IMG/VR virus record: IMGVR_UViG_2675903595_000011
Source of the DNA: a virus
Lineage: Duplodnaviria; Heunggongvirae; Uroviricota; Caudoviricetes
Direction: 5' to 3' (one strand)
Length of the DNA: 43,749 bases
The position numbers and the translations under genes were made by a program. The notes below the pieces were generated by a model. That model saw only the letters and a list, made by a program, of their open reading frames with translations. It made no database searches and had not been told where the DNA came from. Below are positions 23,574-31,991 of this stretch, one piece after another. How positions within the stretch are numbered: the stretch's first letter is position 1; each line of letters begins with the position of its first letter.

Positions 23574-24089
23574 TGCTGACCCCACAAACAGATTTCACGC
23601 TCAATCTCACGACGAGTCATGAGACCTTTCCATTGCTTACCGCCAGCATATGTCCAGCGACGTAGCTGATCACATGCGCCTTTGATATCGCCCTGGTTTA
23701 TTTTGCGAAGAAGCGTCGATGTTCTGAAATTGCCAGCACCCACGTTGTAAACGAATGAGTAAAGAGCGCCGCGCGTTGTTTCCGGTATATCGACTTTGAT
23801 GTACGGGTTAATTTGTCTGGCGACAGTGGCAAGGTCTTTATTCAAGAGTGTTTTGCATTCTGCTTTGGTATACGTTTTACCGAGCATGATGTCTTTTCCT
23901 GTATGCCCGTGACATACAGTCCATACACCAACAATATCTTTGTATGGTATGTAGCTGACACCTTCCAGACCATCGTTACCACTTGGGCCAGTGATTAACA
24001 CTGATGCTATAGCAATTGCTCCGCCNNNNNNNNNNNNNNNNNNNNNNNNNNNNNNNNNNNNNNNNNNNNNNNCGTAATGATGGAGGCAT
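23570..24089 (-). CDS. SAR endolysin (T4-lysozyme-like); N-terminal region interrupted by assembly gap
   Basis: [25 protein letters not shown]... read up to the gap; MPPSLR start found on the far side, overlapping the holin stop. Confidence 0.8.
24026..24072. other. assembly gap (47 N) in endolysin 5' region
   Basis: Run of n characters. Confidence 1.
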
Positions 24090-25568: not shown

Positions 25569-26505
25569 TTTTCCTCACATATGTCATATAGTAAAGGATT
25601 ATATATACCGTTGTTTTGGACGCTCAAACAGCGAATCAGATCAAATAAAACGCACATTTGTTAACATTTACACAAAGTCTGCGTGGGATATTCTGAAAGA
25701 ATATCCATAATGTGGAGAGAATCTATTGAAGTGCATGGTGCCGGGTGCCTCCCGGTGAACAAAATGTTCGTGATACCTGTCGGCGACAGAAAAGGTTAAT
25801 GGTATCACCCCACCGCACAGGGGGATTCACCATGCAGGAGTTTTCTTAGCAAACTCACTGCGCGCCCGGCAACTCCCAACCACATAAAATGCGGAGTTTG
25901 TGGCATTTATGCATATAACTCGCAGGAATTATCTTAAAAAACTGATGTCGATCCGGATTAAAAAGAAGCAGGTCATCATCAGATGACTGGAAAAAAGGAA
26001 AACAAAAAATACTCATCATACAGTTTTGATTGCAGGGATGAGCCTGCTATGCACAATATGCAGAATATAAGCAAGATAAAAATATGCAGGCATATTATTT
26101 CGGATCTTGTTATTAACACAACCTTTTTAATAATCATTTGGCATACAATAAACCAGCCCAAAAAGAACCGCCTAAACAGGCGGTTGGTCAATACAAAGGA
26201 TGCTTCGTCTTTATTATAGTAATCTGAGGCGTCGGGTGTCTTGTATCAGACAACATATTGTCCCGCTAAACAGCGAATTACAAACCACCCTGCAATGATC
26301 TCTCATCTCATTTTATATGAGTTGACGACATCAGGATAACGCATCATCAGCCCCTGCCAAGAAATATCAAAACTCCCGCCAGCAATGTGTTATCACAATA
26401 TTGTAAAAAAAACACAGCACCGAAACTATAACTGGTCTCTGTTATAATTTGGAGCAGAAAGACCAGTTGCCCAACTAGCAGCATTCTCCCCTGCTTTCCT
26501 GACGT

Positions 26506-26532
26506 AAAAAAACCGCATTAAGCGGTTTTTTT
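26506..26532. terminator. perfect palindromic intrinsic terminator downstream of Q
   Basis: AAAAAAACCGC-attaa-GCGGTTTTTTT. Confidence 0.5.
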
Positions 26533-26612
26533 ACGATGTCCATGTCTGCAATCCGCCTCGCGATACAGCTTTGCGAAGCATAGCAAAATTGAAGCAGTTT
26601 ATACGTAAGAAA

Positions 26613-27155
26613 TCAAGCCATTTTCTCAGCAAATGATTCACGCATGGGAATATATAGGGCATACTCAGCAACAGCTAACCAATTAGCAATCCGTTTTTCG
26701 CATGTGCTAAAACACCACTCTGGGTGTGCATCATTTAGCAATTCAGCCATTTTGCGCTTAGTCATCCCCCGCCCTTCATAGCGTTGCCGGAGAATGCAAA
26801 TCAATCCTGGATGCTCTGCCAGCACCTCACTTATGACTCGATCAATACATAACGCCTCTGCATCAGTACAATGCGCCAGCCAGCTCTTTTGCTTGCCGTT
26901 GATCATCTCTCGCAAAAACGCTTCCAGCTCAGCTTTCTCTATTCCCGCTTTTTTCATTCTGCGCAGGGCTTCATTAATGGCTGTTTTCGTCAGTTTTTTG
27001 GATGCCAACAACTGATTGAACATATTCCCTGACCTGCCACCGCCAATATACGACCAGCGCCCCCACATACGTAGTTTTCCCTGAATCCAGACACTTTCCA
27101 GCGTGGTGAGGCGAAGGTGTTCTCCGCTTTTTCCTGTATTCGTTGGGTAAATCAT
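26613..27155 (-). CDS. late-gene antiterminator Q-like protein
   Basis: 180 aa ORF directly upstream of the lysis region; family assigned from memory and synteny. Confidence 0.65.
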   Translation of the reverse strand: MIYPTNTGKSGEHLRLTTLESVWIQGKLRMWGRWSYIGGGRSGNMFNQLLASKKLTKTAINEALRRMKKAGIEKAELEAFLREMINGKQKSWLAHCTDAEALCIDRVISEVLAEHPGLICILRQRYEGRGMTKRKMAELLNDAHPEWCFSTCEKRIANWLAVAEYALYIPMRESFAEKMA

Positions 27156-27442
27156 AAATGACCTTTCTTTCTCCAGATTTCTTGTGTGCGAAAAACCCCT
27201 TCAGCATGCATCAGGCGCAATTCTTCTTTGGTGTAATCGCTGGTTTTTACCCGCCCGTCGATTAGATCGTGGCATGAGCTACAGGCTATCGCCGCCTGCA
27301 TATCATGTGGTTTTGTCGCTGTTCCGCACGTCCCCGCCAGCCTGTAATGCGCCAGCACAGAGGTTTCGGGATTGTGATTGCAGTAGCCAGGGATTCTGAT
27401 CTGGCACATCTGGCCTTTAGCCGCTTTACGTAAATTCACCAT
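27152..27442 (-). CDS. YbcO-like (DUF1364) Cys/His-rich protein
   Basis: 96 aa with conserved Cys/His pattern resembling DLP12 YbcO as recalled. Confidence 0.65.
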   Translation of the reverse strand: MVNLRKAAKGQMCQIRIPGYCNHNPETSVLAHYRLAGTCGTATKPHDMQAAIACSSCHDLIDGRVKTSDYTKEELRLMHAEGVFRTQEIWRKKGHL

Positions 27443-28041
27443 TACGCAAACTCCAGTAGTTGTGCGGCCACATTTTCAACTTCCTCCTGAGAGGAGAATT
27501 TACGGAACAGAATCCAGTTCCACAGCACATTCAGTACAGATTTATAAACCTGCTGAAACTCGACTTCGTCCATATTCGCAAAAGCGATGGATTTTGCCCG
27601 ACGCCCACGGCTACCGTCCGGATAAATATGCTCGGTGTAAAATCCGGCCTGAATGGTTACCCACTCGCGGAAAGCCTCAAACGACTTTAGCAACGCCGTA
27701 TCCCGGGTTCTACGAGTCGCAACGGTGTTAAGGTATTGCTCTGCGGCATCACTCAGGGCTGGCGTGTGTTCCCGACCAACTGATTCGCACAGGTAATCAA
27801 CGAAACCAGACAGCAGTTCTCGTTCGCGAGGCGTGATCGCCCCACCGACCGGAGTCCAGTAATCGAATCCCAGTTGCAGGAGTTTGAAAAAACGCTTGTG
27901 GAATGCGTAGTTACGCACACGCTTAAAGTCTGCGTGTATCCACTCACCTATTTTGATTTGATGCAGAAAATCGCAACTCTCCGGCGTCGCCGGGAGAAGT
28001 AAACCAGAAGAGGTTTGTTTGACCAGTTGTATATGCGCCAT
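27442..28041 (-). CDS. DUF1367-like nin-region protein
   Basis: 199 aa, stop/start overlap with downstream gene. Confidence 0.55.
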   Translation of the reverse strand: MAHIQLVKQTSSGLLLPATPESCDFLHQIKIGEWIHADFKRVRNYAFHKRFFKLLQLGFDYWTPVGGAITPRERELLSGFVDYLCESVGREHTPALSDAAEQYLNTVATRRTRDTALLKSFEAFREWVTIQAGFYTEHIYPDGSRGRRAKSIAFANMDEVEFQQVYKSVLNVLWNWILFRKFSSQEEVENVAAQLLEFA

Positions 28042-28321
28042 TTCTCAATCTCTCGATGGCGCAGCGCAGCAGATGCCAGTTGTTCAGGCTGACGAATAAA
28101 GTATAAATAAACTGGCTATGGTGTAAAGCCCCACATAGCATGAACAAACACTACATATCAAATAGCTGGTACAAGGATAGAAATACGACACTTATTATTA
28201 AAAACGATTAGATAAATTACATTTTAATGTTATGCAAAAGTTCTTTTTTATCATAACATTTCAATAAAAGCATTACAGATGCAATCATCCCGTCATCATC
28301 AATTATTTAAGGTGGTTAAAC

Positions 28322-28408
28322 ATGGAAAATAACAAGTTCGCACATCTCGCTCCTTTTTTATCCGTAATCCTTTTCGCTTGTTGTTTTATATGGGCATTAT
28401 TTTTATAA
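28322..28408 (+). CDS. candidate small hydrophobic protein (28 aa)
   Basis: AAGGTGG RBS 6 nt before ATG; translation MENNKFAHLAPFLSVILFACCFIWALFL. Confidence 0.3.
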   Translation: MENNKFAHLAPFLSVILFACCFIWALFL

Positions 28409-28816
28409 AGTAGCCACATGATAAGTTGCTGGAATCATATTTCCCACTCAAGTCATTAACATTTGATAAGATATATCTAAAAGGACGCCTTTACATTATT
28501 TATGCGTATATAATTTATTTATATACACAGTAAAGGTATCCTGGGAAAATATTTATCGTTAAAAAATACATCATAAATAATTAAGCTGAAATTTCAGAAC
28601 ACAACTAATACACACAATAAGGTTCAGTAACAGTAATCTATGTGGACTACATCGAGATTTTTTGATTAAACTTTAATAACTTATTCCTAACACACAGAAT
28701 GCATAAACTAAAAGTAAAACAAATAGTTATACGAAAAACAACCATATTTATTCTATCTTCTCCTCTAATCAACATATCAATTATGTGTTTCATAACAGCT
28801 TGACATAACCCTCCAA

Positions 28817-28839
28817 AAGATGCATTTTTAATGCATGTT
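28817..28839 (+). promoter_or_regulatory. NsrR-type palindromic operator candidate
   Basis: AAGATGCATTTTTAATGCATGTT: ATGCAT hexamers in inverted orientation, 5 nt apart, 15 nt upstream of the yeaR-like start. Confidence 0.5.
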
Positions 28840-28854
28840 TTGGAGGAGGTGGTT

Positions 28855-29193
28855 ATGACACACAAGAGAATTCCTAAAGATTGGGTAATCAAACGCTCAA
28901 CTCCGTTCTTCACAAAAGAGAACGTACCTTCAGCGTTATTAACACATCATAATACAGCAGCAGGTGTTTTTGGGCAGTTGTGCGTAATGGAAGGCACTGT
29001 AACATATTATGGTTTTACTGATGAGAATGCTACTGAACCGGAGATAAAAGTAGTCATTAATGCTGGCGCTTTTGCAACAAGCCCACCACAATACTGGCAC
29101 CGTGTTGAACTAAGCGATGATGCTCAGTTTAATATTAACTTTTGGGTCGCTCCAGACTTTTCGGGCGAAAAAGTCTATAGCACCAAAAAATAG
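28855..29193 (+). CDS. YeaR-like DUF1971 protein
   Basis: GGAGGAGG RBS; MTHKRIPKDWVIKRSTPFF... resembles E. coli YeaR as recalled. Confidence 0.8.
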   Translation: MTHKRIPKDWVIKRSTPFFTKENVPSALLTHHNTAAGVFGQLCVMEGTVTYYGFTDENATEPEIKVVINAGAFATSPPQYWHRVELSDDAQFNINFWVAPDFSGEKVYSTKK

Positions 29194-29221
29194 ATGATCA
29201 TATTAAAAATGCTTTAACAGT

Positions 29222-29262
29222 CAGACCCGGCAGGGCTATCCCCGACGGGTCTCATTTTTGTA
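29222..29262 (+). terminator. possible terminator after yeaR-like gene
   Basis: GACCCG...CGGGTC stem followed by TCATTTTTG; long loop, weak. Confidence 0.3.
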
Positions 29263-29813
29263 AATATATTGGTTCTACATTGACAGGAGACTTCAACCAT
29301 AAGAAGTAATCTGAATACTTGAGCAATAAATTTACTTAAGATTAATGAGCGCACCTTGCCGGACAAAGATAAACCAAGGTAACACCTTTTTTCTAGCCAG
29401 TATGTAATCAATCAGAAAGCCGCTCCATAAGAACAACAGCAAGACAATAAATTGCCATTACAGCCGCAATAGCCAGCGCACATTTGAGAACCAGCACGAC
29501 AACCCCCTGTATTAGACGCACACCAGTCCTGATAAATATGAGGCTGTCTCGTCAGTGATTCAATACAACTATTGGGTATAGTTTCTGTGATTTTATTCTG
29601 TAGAAATGGAACACAACAACCAGTCACCACCAGCACTTCCTTAAATGCTCTAAGTCAGAAACAAGCCAACATTTTAGTCCGCTTTGAGCGATCTGCAGAC
29701 ATTGCTAGCAGCCTTCTGTGTGAATTCTCAGGGAGCAGGTCGGCATAGCATCACGTTGAGGCTCTTACCCTACTTGTTCACACCAACCCTAACTCCACAG
29801 ACTGATTCATAAA

Positions 29814-30815
29814 TTAGTAATCTGCGTGTTTCGCACTTTTCAGAAATGCTTTCATATTTTCATTAGGTCGCTCAATTTCGAAGTTACTTCCATATAACTC
29901 TTGTAATTTTGGCCATAACTTACTTAATAACCCTCTCCTGCGATAAAATGGATGTATCCAAACGGTAGATAGGTACGGAGAATTTGCATTTGAATTGTTT
30001 ATTGTGACCAGCCCAACTAAACATTGTCGATAACCACTATTATCCATTGATTGTATTTCTTCGACGAATGGATACGCGATTACATCAGTCCAACCATGAT
30101 CGGTTGTATCCCATTGCATTCCGTCATGACATTCCTTCGACTGATAGCGGCGTAAAGCTACACACGCGAGCTTTTGCCAATCTGGAGAATTAATTGTGAT
30201 CTCTTCATCGTATGACGCGCCTATTGGAGCGGGTATTGGTCTGATTAATCCAGCATGGCATTCATCATAGAACTTCATGTTTCCCTCAGAAACGTTGTGT
30301 ACGTTGGGTTGCTCCATGTGTGCGCCATTCAAAAATAGCTCTGATAGTAGTGTATCTACACTGTAATCTTTATTGATTATTGTCGGCTTAGAGTTTTTCT
30401 TATTAAGGCCGCGAGTAACGATTTTTTGATCAATGTTAACAACATGGAATAATCCGTCGGGGAGGCTAGCGAACCACGATGGGGCATCGGACCAGAATAG
30501 CATGCCTTTTGTACTTCTTAAGAGTTTAATTAAGTTAATACAAGCTTCTTCACTAGTCTTGCCGTTGATGCGAAGTATGTTAGGACTAAAGTAATATTCA
30601 TCCATATCAGGGAATGCAGCTTCGCAAAACTCCTGTACATAATTTAGCACCTGGATTCTACAGAGATCATCATAGCTGGTAATAACTAAGGGGGTATCTT
30701 CATTACTATTATGATTATCAATAATGCAATCTATAGCGAGACTTACTGCTTTGCGTATCACTTCAGTTGAATCTAACGACTCTAAAAATTTTGTCTTTCG
30801 TGTGCGAATATCCAT
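29814..30815 (-). CDS. hypothetical protein, second gene of AT-rich two-gene cassette; GNAT-like motif at C-terminus
   Basis: 333 aa; ATG 15 nt after upstream stop; C-terminal ...YLSTVWIHPFYRRRGLLSKLWPKLQELYG. Confidence 0.65.
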   Translation of the reverse strand: MDIRTRKTKFLESLDSTEVIRKAVSLAIDCIIDNHNSNEDTPLVITSYDDLCRIQVLNYVQEFCEAAFPDMDEYYFSPNILRINGKTSEEACINLIKLLRSTKGMLFWSDAPSWFASLPDGLFHVVNIDQKIVTRGLNKKNSKPTIINKDYSVDTLLSELFLNGAHMEQPNVHNVSEGNMKFYDECHAGLIRPIPAPIGASYDEEITINSPDWQKLACVALRRYQSKECHDGMQWDTTDHGWTDVIAYPFVEEIQSMDNSGYRQCLVGLVTINNSNANSPYLSTVWIHPFYRRRGLLSKLWPKLQELYGSNFEIERPNENMKAFLKSAKHADY

Positions 30816-30830
30816 GTATGACCTGCGCTA

Positions 30831-31853
30831 TTAAAATTCATGAATGAACGGTTTGTCATCTGGTTGCAAAATGGTGGTTTTATTCGTTGCTACATTTAAA
30901 CTGTTGTAGAGCATAATTGCCAGGTTCGATGCATTTTCAATCAGCGTTTCAAGATCCTGGTCTGTAATCACTACGAGGTTCCCTTCTTTATCCTTTCCAC
31001 CACGATGCACTAAGTGATTTCGATTGAGGGTTGCCAATTCAATAGCTTCTATCGGACAGTCTTTTTGTACTTTTATATCGAATGTAGCTTCATAGCGGTC
31101 GATTACCTTTTTAGTGCTATGCCAGCTTGCACTGATCAAGTGTTCCTTGATTGACCTGATTAGCTCTCCCCTAATTTTCTCGATGGGTTCACCCTTGAAA
31201 GGCAACGCAGCAATATCTTTGCTTACTTTAAATTCAGTCTTACCTTTTTCTATACAATTGGCTATGTAGACATCATCTTTCTCTATAGAATTAATGAATA
31301 GCTCAACATAAAGCGTTTCCAAAGCTGTAATAACATTCGTGTAGAGCAAACTAAGCAAGTGGTTTTTTTGCTGTTGTTCAGTTTTATCTTTTGCAAGTTT
31401 TTTTATTTTATCGATATTATCAATGAATTTTAAATACGGATTACCGGAAGACGTTACAGCGTCGTAGATATCATCATCGTACCAATCATCTATATTATTT
31501 GAGTTTCCAGACCAGTCAAAACATTGTGTTTGTAATTCATCTACTAATTCCTCAATATACTCAGATTTAACATATTGACCGAAGATGGATTGTAGTTCTT
31601 CGCTCGCATCATACGGCCCGCCATATATGTAAGCATAGCCACCTTCTCTACTTTCATACGGACAAGCATTTGCCGGATCTTCAAAGTTTTCAAAGAACCA
31701 GTTTTTCATTACTTCGAGTTGATCTTTTTTGCTTATGTATTTTAAAGATTTTAGTGGAACTTTCTTTCCATTAACCTCGAAAACAATTTTCACGATGTAA
31801 CGCTCCCTTGTATCAATTGCGCAACTATTATACCACAGCGAAATACAGGGCAT
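30831..31853 (-). CDS. hypothetical protein, first gene of AT-rich two-gene cassette; C-terminal HEPN-like Rx4H motif
   Basis: AAGGAGG RBS 6 nt upstream of ATG at 31853 (MPCISLWY...); RNHLVH at codons 278-283 (about 31005..31022). Confidence 0.65.
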   Translation of the reverse strand: MPCISLWYNSCAIDTRERYIVKIVFEVNGKKVPLKSLKYISKKDQLEVMKNWFFENFEDPANACPYESREGGYAYIYGGPYDASEELQSIFGQYVKSEYIEELVDELQTQCFDWSGNSNNIDDWYDDDIYDAVTSSGNPYLKFIDNIDKIKKLAKDKTEQQQKNHLLSLLYTNVITALETLYVELFINSIEKDDVYIANCIEKGKTEFKVSKDIAALPFKGEPIEKIRGELIRSIKEHLISASWHSTKKVIDRYEATFDIKVQKDCPIEAIELATLNRNHLVHRGGKDKEGNLVVITDQDLETLIENASNLAIMLYNSLNVATNKTTILQPDDKPFIHEF

Positions 31854-31991
31854 AACCTGCCTCCTTAAACTAACATACCATGAGCCAGCAATGTCCGCTA
31901 TTGGCACAAAGCGGACAACCACGCTAGCTCTCCCCTGTGCCAGAAAAATGTCAATTTACATATGAACTAATGCTCTTTGATCTAGTAACGT

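Follow-up and report, generated by a model that had tools for sequence, protein, structure and literature searches.

The short hydrophobic type I toxins of Escherichia coli (Ibs/Sib, ShoB/OhsC, ZorO/OrzO, TisB/IstR-1 and Hok/Sok) are peptides of 19-50 amino acids (aa). E. coli also makes small inner-membrane proteins that are not toxic, among them YohP, YnhF, CydX, AcrZ and MgtS, and such proteins typically act by binding a larger membrane protein. The moron concept for phage genomes is said to go back to Juhala et al. in 2000, with bor and lom of phage lambda and gp15 of HK97 reportedly among its examples. In Enterobacteriaceae, the 'Entero67K' set comprises 67,297 clusters of intergenic small open reading frames (smORFs) under purifying selection (PMC11188072). 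Here we analyze a 28-codon open reading frame (ORF) at positions 28322-28408 on the plus strand of IMG/VR record IMGVR_UViG_2675903595_000011, a Caudoviricetes sequence whose full 43,749 nucleotides (nt) we refer to as the window. On balance, we interpret this ORF as an unannotated gene for a 28-residue single-pass membrane microprotein, carried on a moron-like cassette of ~220 bp (28189-28409).

The ORF is 87 nt long, begins with ATG at 28322, ends with TAA at 28406-28408, and encodes MENNKFAHLAPFLSVILFACCFIWALFL. The peptide consists of a polar N-terminus, MENNKFAH, followed by one hydrophobic segment of ~19 residues that reaches the C-terminus; its best 18-residue Kyte-Doolittle mean is 2.49, and residues 10-28 are free of charge in every peptide variant. 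A Shine-Dalgarno (SD)-like AAGGTGG (28309-28315, plus strand) lies 6 nt before the ATG, separated from it by the spacer TTAAAC. This hydrophobic 28-codon ORF, its start and the AAGGTGG 6 nt upstream had been reported in a first-pass annotation, with which the sequence and the ORF list agree. The annotation called the ribosome-binding site (RBS) strong. It matches AAGGAGG at 6 of 7 positions and includes the perfect 5-mer AGGTG, so that by its letters it is a good SD but not an exceptional one. Like the YohP-type proteins, the predicted product is shorter than 50 aa, consists of little more than a single transmembrane helix capped by a short polar end, and is of a kind missed by gene callers. 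Those proteins, however, are products of chromosomal core or regulon genes with experimental support, whereas the peptide described here is sequence-predicted cargo of Escherichia/Shigella prophages.

Conservation of the ORF was assessed in complete genomes and in viral and metagenomic collections. An 811-nt query matched 850 of 5426 complete E. coli genomes, and a more sensitive search placed the module in 1176 of the 5426 (~22%). Strains NCTC9066 and LD39-1 are among those with a 100% identical locus. In 366 of the 850, the match had ~76% identity, covered only query positions 1-360/375 and ended at the ORF stop codon. The sequence beyond the stop differs among genomes and comprises iteS/iteA, hokD-relBE, a hok gene, or DUF1971 with hok and KilA-N; the alignment of this clade shows no loss of the SD, the ATG, the TAA or any of the 28 codons. 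Shigella flexneri and E. ruysiae carry the module as well, and so do four deposited E. coli phage genomes, in which it is located between DnaC-like/YdaW/LygF and DUF1367-YbcO-Q. E. coli K-12 lacks the cassette, and the element is missing from the ydfU-rem-hokD region of its Qin prophage. A profile search with nhmmer found no diverged second copies, leaving one copy per locus.

The pattern used for the first collection of loci fixed some codon positions, and the sampling was repeated with an ORF-blind 29-nt anchor located ~230 nt upstream. ATG, 28 codons and stop were intact in 115 of the 117 IMG/VR loci retrieved by this anchor, the opposite of the frame loss in homologous regions that the first-pass annotation had held to count against a gene; the two exceptions carry an insertion sequence (IS) element upstream and not a decayed ORF. 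Every one of the peptide variants (15 in the pattern sample, 14 in the anchor sample) is 28 aa long. Three lineages are known. The third consists of L117 from IMG/VR and L260 from a metagenome, was found with patterns that fix some amino-acid positions, and encodes MENNKSAHYAPFLSIILFVCCFIWALFL from an ORF that differs mostly at synonymous sites. When the two common clades were excluded, a scan returned only L117 in IMG/VR, and L260 plus four chance matches in metagenomes; no copy more than 90% identical to the L117 module occurs in the 5426 complete E. coli genomes.

The substitutions that separate these lineages resemble those of a protein-coding sequence. Pairwise ratios of non-synonymous to synonymous divergence (dN/dS; NG86 method) are 0.04-0.45 between lineages and at most 0.15 against L117, a comparison in which dN is biased downward because the search patterns for L117 and L260 fixed some amino-acid positions. 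Synonymous divergence (dS) between lineages is 0.5-1.8, on a par with the ~40% divergence seen in the neighboring linker (28260-28308, plus strand), which separates a leader hairpin from the SD and serves as a near-neutral comparator. This linker has ~60% identity, 5-13 gapped columns between lineages and a diversity of ~0.2. The 87 nt of the ORF contain no insertions or deletions (indels), whereas the alignment of the preceding 300 nt has 75 gapped columns. On a minimum-spanning network of 19 haplotypes, the 51 substitution events in frame +0 divide into 26 synonymous, 25 non-synonymous and no stops. The other five frames have 8-22 synonymous events, and each has stop events or internal stops in at least some haplotypes; frame +0 is the sole frame that is open in every haplotype, and it has the most synonymous changes. 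Relative to a mutation-type-matched null, the synonymous excess at pattern-free positions has P = 0.015. Variable columns of the ORF fall at third codon positions in 17 cases, versus 6 and 8 at the other two, a distribution that is partly biased by the pattern. Amino-acid replacements are hydrophobic-for-hydrophobic, and MENN, P11-F12, S14, W24 and at least one Cys are retained. A 38-aa antisense ORF (28303-28419) was considered as an alternative and rejected, as its start lies outside the conserved unit and all minus-strand frames have stop events or internal stops in at least some haplotypes.

Frame, start, stop and hydrophobic segment are thus kept in three diverged lineages with dN/dS well below 1 and no indels, in line with the small membrane protein proposed at first pass. 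From these three lineages, we conclude that purifying selection at the protein level is likely, with support of moderate strength. That the ORF is a real gene, whether for a benign membrane protein or for a toxin, we regard as quite likely. The locus resembles members of the Entero67K set in being an intergenic, hydrophobic ORF within the 15-70-codon range that is conserved with dN/dS < 1; it differs from them in the documented independent mobility of its cassette and in its leader hairpin (PMC11188072).

A number of observations weigh against a gene, and several of them favor a non-coding element, either a regulatory region or a small RNA (sRNA), in which the ORF is incidental and its frame survives through the closeness of the lineages and the T-rich DNA. 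Markov-1 random sequence yields 27.3 +/- 5.5 ATG-initiated ORFs of 20-50 aa with a 5-mer SD core, and the window contains 26; on that count, an ORF preceded by an SD is not above chance. The combination of ORF, SD and hydrophobic stretch occurs once, versus 0.08 expected per window (0.006 in the gap that holds the ORF), and this hydrophobicity is itself partly expected because T-rich DNA (the ORF is 44% T) encodes hydrophobic residues. The hydrophobicity of enterobacterial smORFs has likewise been attributed to AT-rich intergenic DNA (PMC11188072). The case beyond chance is therefore a comparative one and does not follow from the sequence of the window by itself. The comparisons are also shallow, covering three lineages that all belong to Escherichia/Shigella-type prophages, and to the downward bias in dN is added the outcome of the stricter tests. 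A strictly unbiased two-clade sample gave 13 synonymous events of 36 versus 9.5 +/- 2.5 expected (P = 0.11), the no-stop test on this sample gave P = 0.23, and the synonymous excess at fully unconstrained codons had P = 0.12, in a set biased the opposite way because the constrained codons were chosen for conservation. The first-pass annotation had looked to conservation of both frame and RBS in related prophages: the frame is kept in all three lineages, but while most loci have AAGGTG(G/A) as the SD, and L117 has AAGGTAG, a weaker SD, AAAGTGAG or AAAGCGAG, is found in ~34 of 126 loci (~27%). Upstream, the block 28187-28231 has a nucleotide diversity of 0.02-0.04, the lowest in the cassette; because it is more conserved than the ORF, part of the conservation of the cassette is non-coding. 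A position weight matrix (PWM) scan found no plus-strand sigma-70 promoter above background that is common to all lineages, no terminator of the ORF's own was seen in the window, and the putative mRNA folds no more stably than its shuffled counterparts (z = -1.0 to -1.8). The peptide did not turn up in the supplements of the Sakai Ribo-seq paper (PMC5597208), nor in the accessible part of those of the Enterobacteriaceae smORF survey (PMC11188072).

Nevertheless, variation concentrated at third codon positions and 26 synonymous events among 51 are the opposite of what constraint at the nucleotide level would produce. The linker accumulated indels and ~40% divergence, while the ORF next to it has no indels, and the right boundary of the conserved unit is the stop codon in three different contexts. 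Global RNA stability gave no signal on either strand, and no Rfam family was found on the cassette (E <= 1, positions 26000-31000, both strands). A non-coding element with an incidental ORF is therefore improbable in our assessment, and we continue to favor a gene for a membrane microprotein.

The boundaries of the cassette were defined by comparing loci in which its surroundings differ. Blastn between L117 and the window aligned L117 641-866 with window 28189-28409 (plus strand) at 76% identity and found nothing else in common. The L117 copy is neighbored by a tail-fiber gene and a candidate hok-type region, recognized by eye only, and there is no DUF1367 gene. Because L117 shares only 28189-28409, in a different gene context, we take leader, SD and ORF together as the minimal mobile unit of ~220 bp. 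Next to DUF1367, a larger segment (~28092-28412) behaves as an indel relative to cassette-less prophages: it is absent from 10 of 75 loci whose DUF1367 gene is at least 97% identical, a set in which all relatives by synteny are that close and which is informative on presence or absence and not on divergence. In the cassette-less loci, the DUF1367 side ...GTTGTTCAAGCT runs directly into a hok terminator. In the other E. coli clade, homology stops at or just past the ORF stop codon. By these alignments, the cassette is discrete and mobile, with its right edge at the stop codon. It shares with morons a present/absent, polymorphic insertion between conserved phage genes, a deviant GC content (31% versus 46%), an orientation opposed to the flanking operon and an occurrence in several phage contexts. 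In contrast to morons, it is far smaller (~220 bp with an 87-nt gene), and its promoter and terminator are only predicted.

The coincidence of the right edge with the stop codon could also arise if the ORF were the relic 5' end of a longer gene truncated by cargo insertion, coding for a signal peptide or an N-terminal membrane span that may have belonged to a lipoprotein. Homology does end directly after the stop, weak signal-peptide-like matches to Lp6.6 lipoprotein and Rz-like spanin profiles were obtained below cut-off (E = 0.03-0.24), and the motifs LFAC and FAGC resemble a lipobox. The commonest clade, however, has FVLC (or FVFC), which does not qualify as a lipobox, and the Cys is followed by just 7-8 hydrophobic residues; a lipoprotein signal peptide, defined by the lipobox [LVI][ASTVI][GAS]C plus a mature domain, was accordingly rejected. 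No longer parent was recovered by tblastn (E <= 10) against 50,697 phage and 72,556 plasmid records, which returned only the 28-aa form, in E. coli. An identical stop in three lineages with three different downstream sequences makes a relic very unlikely, and purifying selection after truncation would still mean a functional ORF. The diversity of downstream genes bears equally on a role as a leader peptide (uORF) controlling the DUF1971 gene, which is on the same strand and 446 nt downstream in the window lineage. Other lineages have convergent (hokD, hok, iteS) or unrelated genes at this position, and these alternative contexts effectively refute a uORF. The DUF1971 gene is also preceded by a promoter region of its own and by a 17-nt inverted repeat, and there is no terminator or attenuator after the ORF in the window.

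The leader of the favored microprotein gene contains two predicted hairpins. The most conserved block, at the left edge of the cassette (28189-28226), includes a 5-bp hairpin (hairpin 1) and a weak candidate plus-strand promoter, and it is followed by the 33-nt hairpin 2 (28227-28259, plus strand). RNAalifold on seven representatives predicted hairpin 2 as ATGTTATG-N17-CATAACAT, in which an outer stem of 8 bp encloses a variable inner one. All seven sequences keep the outer pairs, where the only changes are from G-C to G-U and from U-A to U-G; the plus strand accommodates these, but they disrupt the equivalent minus-strand fold. In the inner stem, both sides have changed. Hairpin 2 is exactly 33 nt long in 16 of 16 distinct variants, and a minus-strand fold loses pairs in most of them. 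The candidate promoter, TTATTA-17-TACATT (28195-28200 and 28218-28223), was found by inspection; it matches at 7 of 12 positions, which is below the PWM threshold, is conserved in all three lineages, and would start an RNA at hairpin 2.

From these features we infer how the gene might be expressed. Rightward transcription would start from the weak, AT-rich TTATTA-17-TACATT, independent of the leftward early/nin transcription of the phage, and with this promoter the mRNA would begin at or near hairpin 2, which may act as a 5' stabilizer. Translation would start at AAGGTGG/ATG with A-rich early codons. A helix of residues ~10-28, resembling a tail anchor, would insert into the membrane and leave the polar MENNK N-terminus in the cytoplasm. 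The peptide might then act in the inner membrane of the lysogen by perturbing it as a toxin would, by modulating a membrane protein, or by excluding other phages. We rate a benign membrane modulator or exclusion factor somewhat above a toxin, but the data do not tell the two apart. In the non-window clade, ~22 nt past the ORF stop, lies a G+C-rich hairpin, AAACCCGC-NNNN-GCGGGTTT, which serves the convergent hok or iteS gene as its terminator. In L002 (3368-3401) it has 15 pairs and is bidirectional, and the transcript of the small ORF could end at this hairpin as well.

IS elements were observed in and near the leader. Strain 3PT carries IS5 between hairpin 2 and the SD (L266 1321-2613), and H115, which was considered as a lineage with a new leader, was rejected as such because it has an IS5 insertion. 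The IMG/VR loci L130 and L133 have an IS element at the equivalent of ~28165, whose end resembles that of IS2.

The toxin variant of a real gene was weighed as a type I toxin-antitoxin (TA) module, in which the peptide would damage membranes and a ~110-nt antisense RNA would start over the start codon and SD and run leftward through the leader to the hairpin at 28189-28206. The peptide resembles type I toxins in size, in its single hydrophobic helix, in its location in a prophage near TA loci and in its long conserved leader. It is 28 aa long with a Kyte-Doolittle mean of 2.49, and its slot is elsewhere filled by hok, hokD-relBE and IteAS; the leader is at least 90 nt long, and predicted folds allow the SD to base-pair with sequence upstream of it. 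On the minus strand, a promoter-like TTTCCA-15/16-(TATGAT|AATAAT) occurs in all three lineages and in 53 of 61 haplotypes. In the window this candidate reads TTTCCA-15-AATAAT (28302-28328) and lies across the start codon and SD; its counterpart in the other E. coli clade is TTTCCA-16-TATGAT (9/12 in L002 and L003). Hairpin 1 (28189-28206), at which the left edge of the mobile unit falls, is kept on the minus strand, with wobble (G-U) pairs in the window type and a double change from G-C to A-U in L117.

The antisense -35 TTTCCA is merely the reverse complement of ATGGAAA, and the site is under threshold in the window lineage. Hairpin 1 is the sole hairpin downstream of it and is not credible as a terminator because it has only 5 bp with an 8-nt A/U loop and no U-tract after it in L117. 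Type I toxins differ from this peptide in having a family match, an antitoxin in Rfam, a demonstrable antisense gene with a terminator and a polar or charged C-terminal tail. There was no match to Hok_Gef, Ldr, Ibs, ShoB, TisB or ZorO, nor to Sok, Sib, Rdl, IstR, OhsC or OrzO, and no toxin family matched in Pfam or NCBIfam. The single copy per locus has no trans-complementary partner, and no inactivated alleles were seen, though IS insertions in the leader occur. The resemblance to type I toxins noted at first pass thus did not extend beyond general likeness, and the search for an antisense sRNA suggested there yielded no convincing gene: a promoter-like site that is weak in the window lineage, with no real terminator after it, and no Rfam match. 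We consider a type I function unlikely. It is equally doubtful that the cassette is an unrecognized, minimal, ~220-bp mobile type I or abortive-infection-like module in which a 28-aa toxin gene has its structured leader overlapped by a divergent antisense RNA. We similarly give little weight to the idea that such a toxin module moves from one cargo slot to another among lambdoid prophages, in the company of hok, relBE and IteAS.

Neither annotation nor protein collections contain the microprotein. Exact look-up of seven peptide variants in a collection of 15 billion proteins found none. Pfam gave no match to the peptide, NCBIfam gave only noise at E = 0.03 and PHROGs only noise at E >= 0.1, and a full-text literature search with the peptide string had no matches. 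The Prokaryotic Genome Annotation Pipeline (PGAP) has no annotation at the ORF in any of the genomes shown. Common gene callers have a minimum length of 90 nt, and the ORF may be unannotated because, at 87 nt, it is 3 nt under this limit. The Rfam search also returned two sub-threshold matches to isrK, a Salmonella prophage sRNA, at 26451-26579 on both strands, just downstream of the Q-like gene; at E = 0.16-0.39 and 20-22 bits versus a gathering score of 50, these are probably noise.

The window is a Rac-like lambdoid prophage with trkG, essD, rrrD, kilR, sieB and recE; it contains 341 non-ACGT bases, with runs at 2626-2919 and 24026-24072. The first-pass annotation placed the ORF in an AT-rich gap of ~800 bp between a nin-region gene and a yeaR-like gene, and we find a gap of 813 nt with 31% GC (46% in the window). 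It is bordered by a DUF1367 gene (27442-28041, minus strand; Pfam PF07105, E = 6e-98), which is divergent from the ORF, and by a DUF1971 (YeaR-like) gene (28855-29193, plus strand; Pfam PF09313, E = 2e-26), which belongs to a separate downstream cargo cassette. The conserved left part of the gap is explained by a minus-strand TTTACA-16-TATACT (28100-28127) and is not part of the ORF unit. This sequence is aimed at DUF1367/YbcO/Q, occurs in 59 of 61 haplotypes with invariant hexamers and a variable spacer, and has the top PWM score (9.3). It is probably an internal nin/Q operon promoter that is independent of pR.

Directly upstream of the DUF1971 gene, at 28810-28846, is a 17-nt inverted repeat, CCTCCAAAAGATGCATT-TTT-AATGCATGTTTTGGAGG, with 94% complementarity. 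We take it to resemble the NsrR operator of K-12 yeaR, AAGATGCATTT-n-AAATGCATnTT, and the repeat suggests that DUF1971 may be a nitrosative-stress-regulated prophage cargo gene. As RNA, the CCUCC of the repeat would pair with the GGAGG SD of DUF1971.

In otherwise near-identical prophages, cargo accumulates at one hotspot, the slot that separates the replication genes (DnaC-like, YdaW, LygF) from DUF1367, as illustrated by window ~28410-29800 and by loci L002, L003, L004, L005, L264 and L265. Its content varies among IteAS, an anti-phage system of an S8 peptidase and an ATPase, hokD-relBE, a lone hok, and DUF1971 with hok and KilA-N. The ORF cassette itself sits in this variable slot, which has the replication module on one side and the nin/Q module on the other in Rac-like lambdoid prophages. 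Adjoining the slot are two uncharacterized genes (29814-31922, minus strand), whose 333-aa product has a weak GNAT match (E = 9e-4) and whose 363-aa product has a weak match to a HEPN/RES N-terminal domain (E = 2e-4). Neither has a PADLOC match, and the pair could be an undescribed conflict or defense pair.

The existence of such a gene would not surprise specialists, because tens of thousands of conserved hydrophobic smORFs have been catalogued in enterobacteria (PMC11188072). The cassette shows how small a mobile gene cassette can be. A toxin module of this kind, if real, would occur in ~22% of E. coli genomes and yet be invisible to annotation pipelines. If the ORF is translated, it would specify a widespread prophage-borne membrane microprotein of E. 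coli, Shigella and E. ruysiae, which could plausibly contribute to membrane toxicity, phage exclusion or prophage maintenance, given that the slot carries TA and anti-phage cargo.

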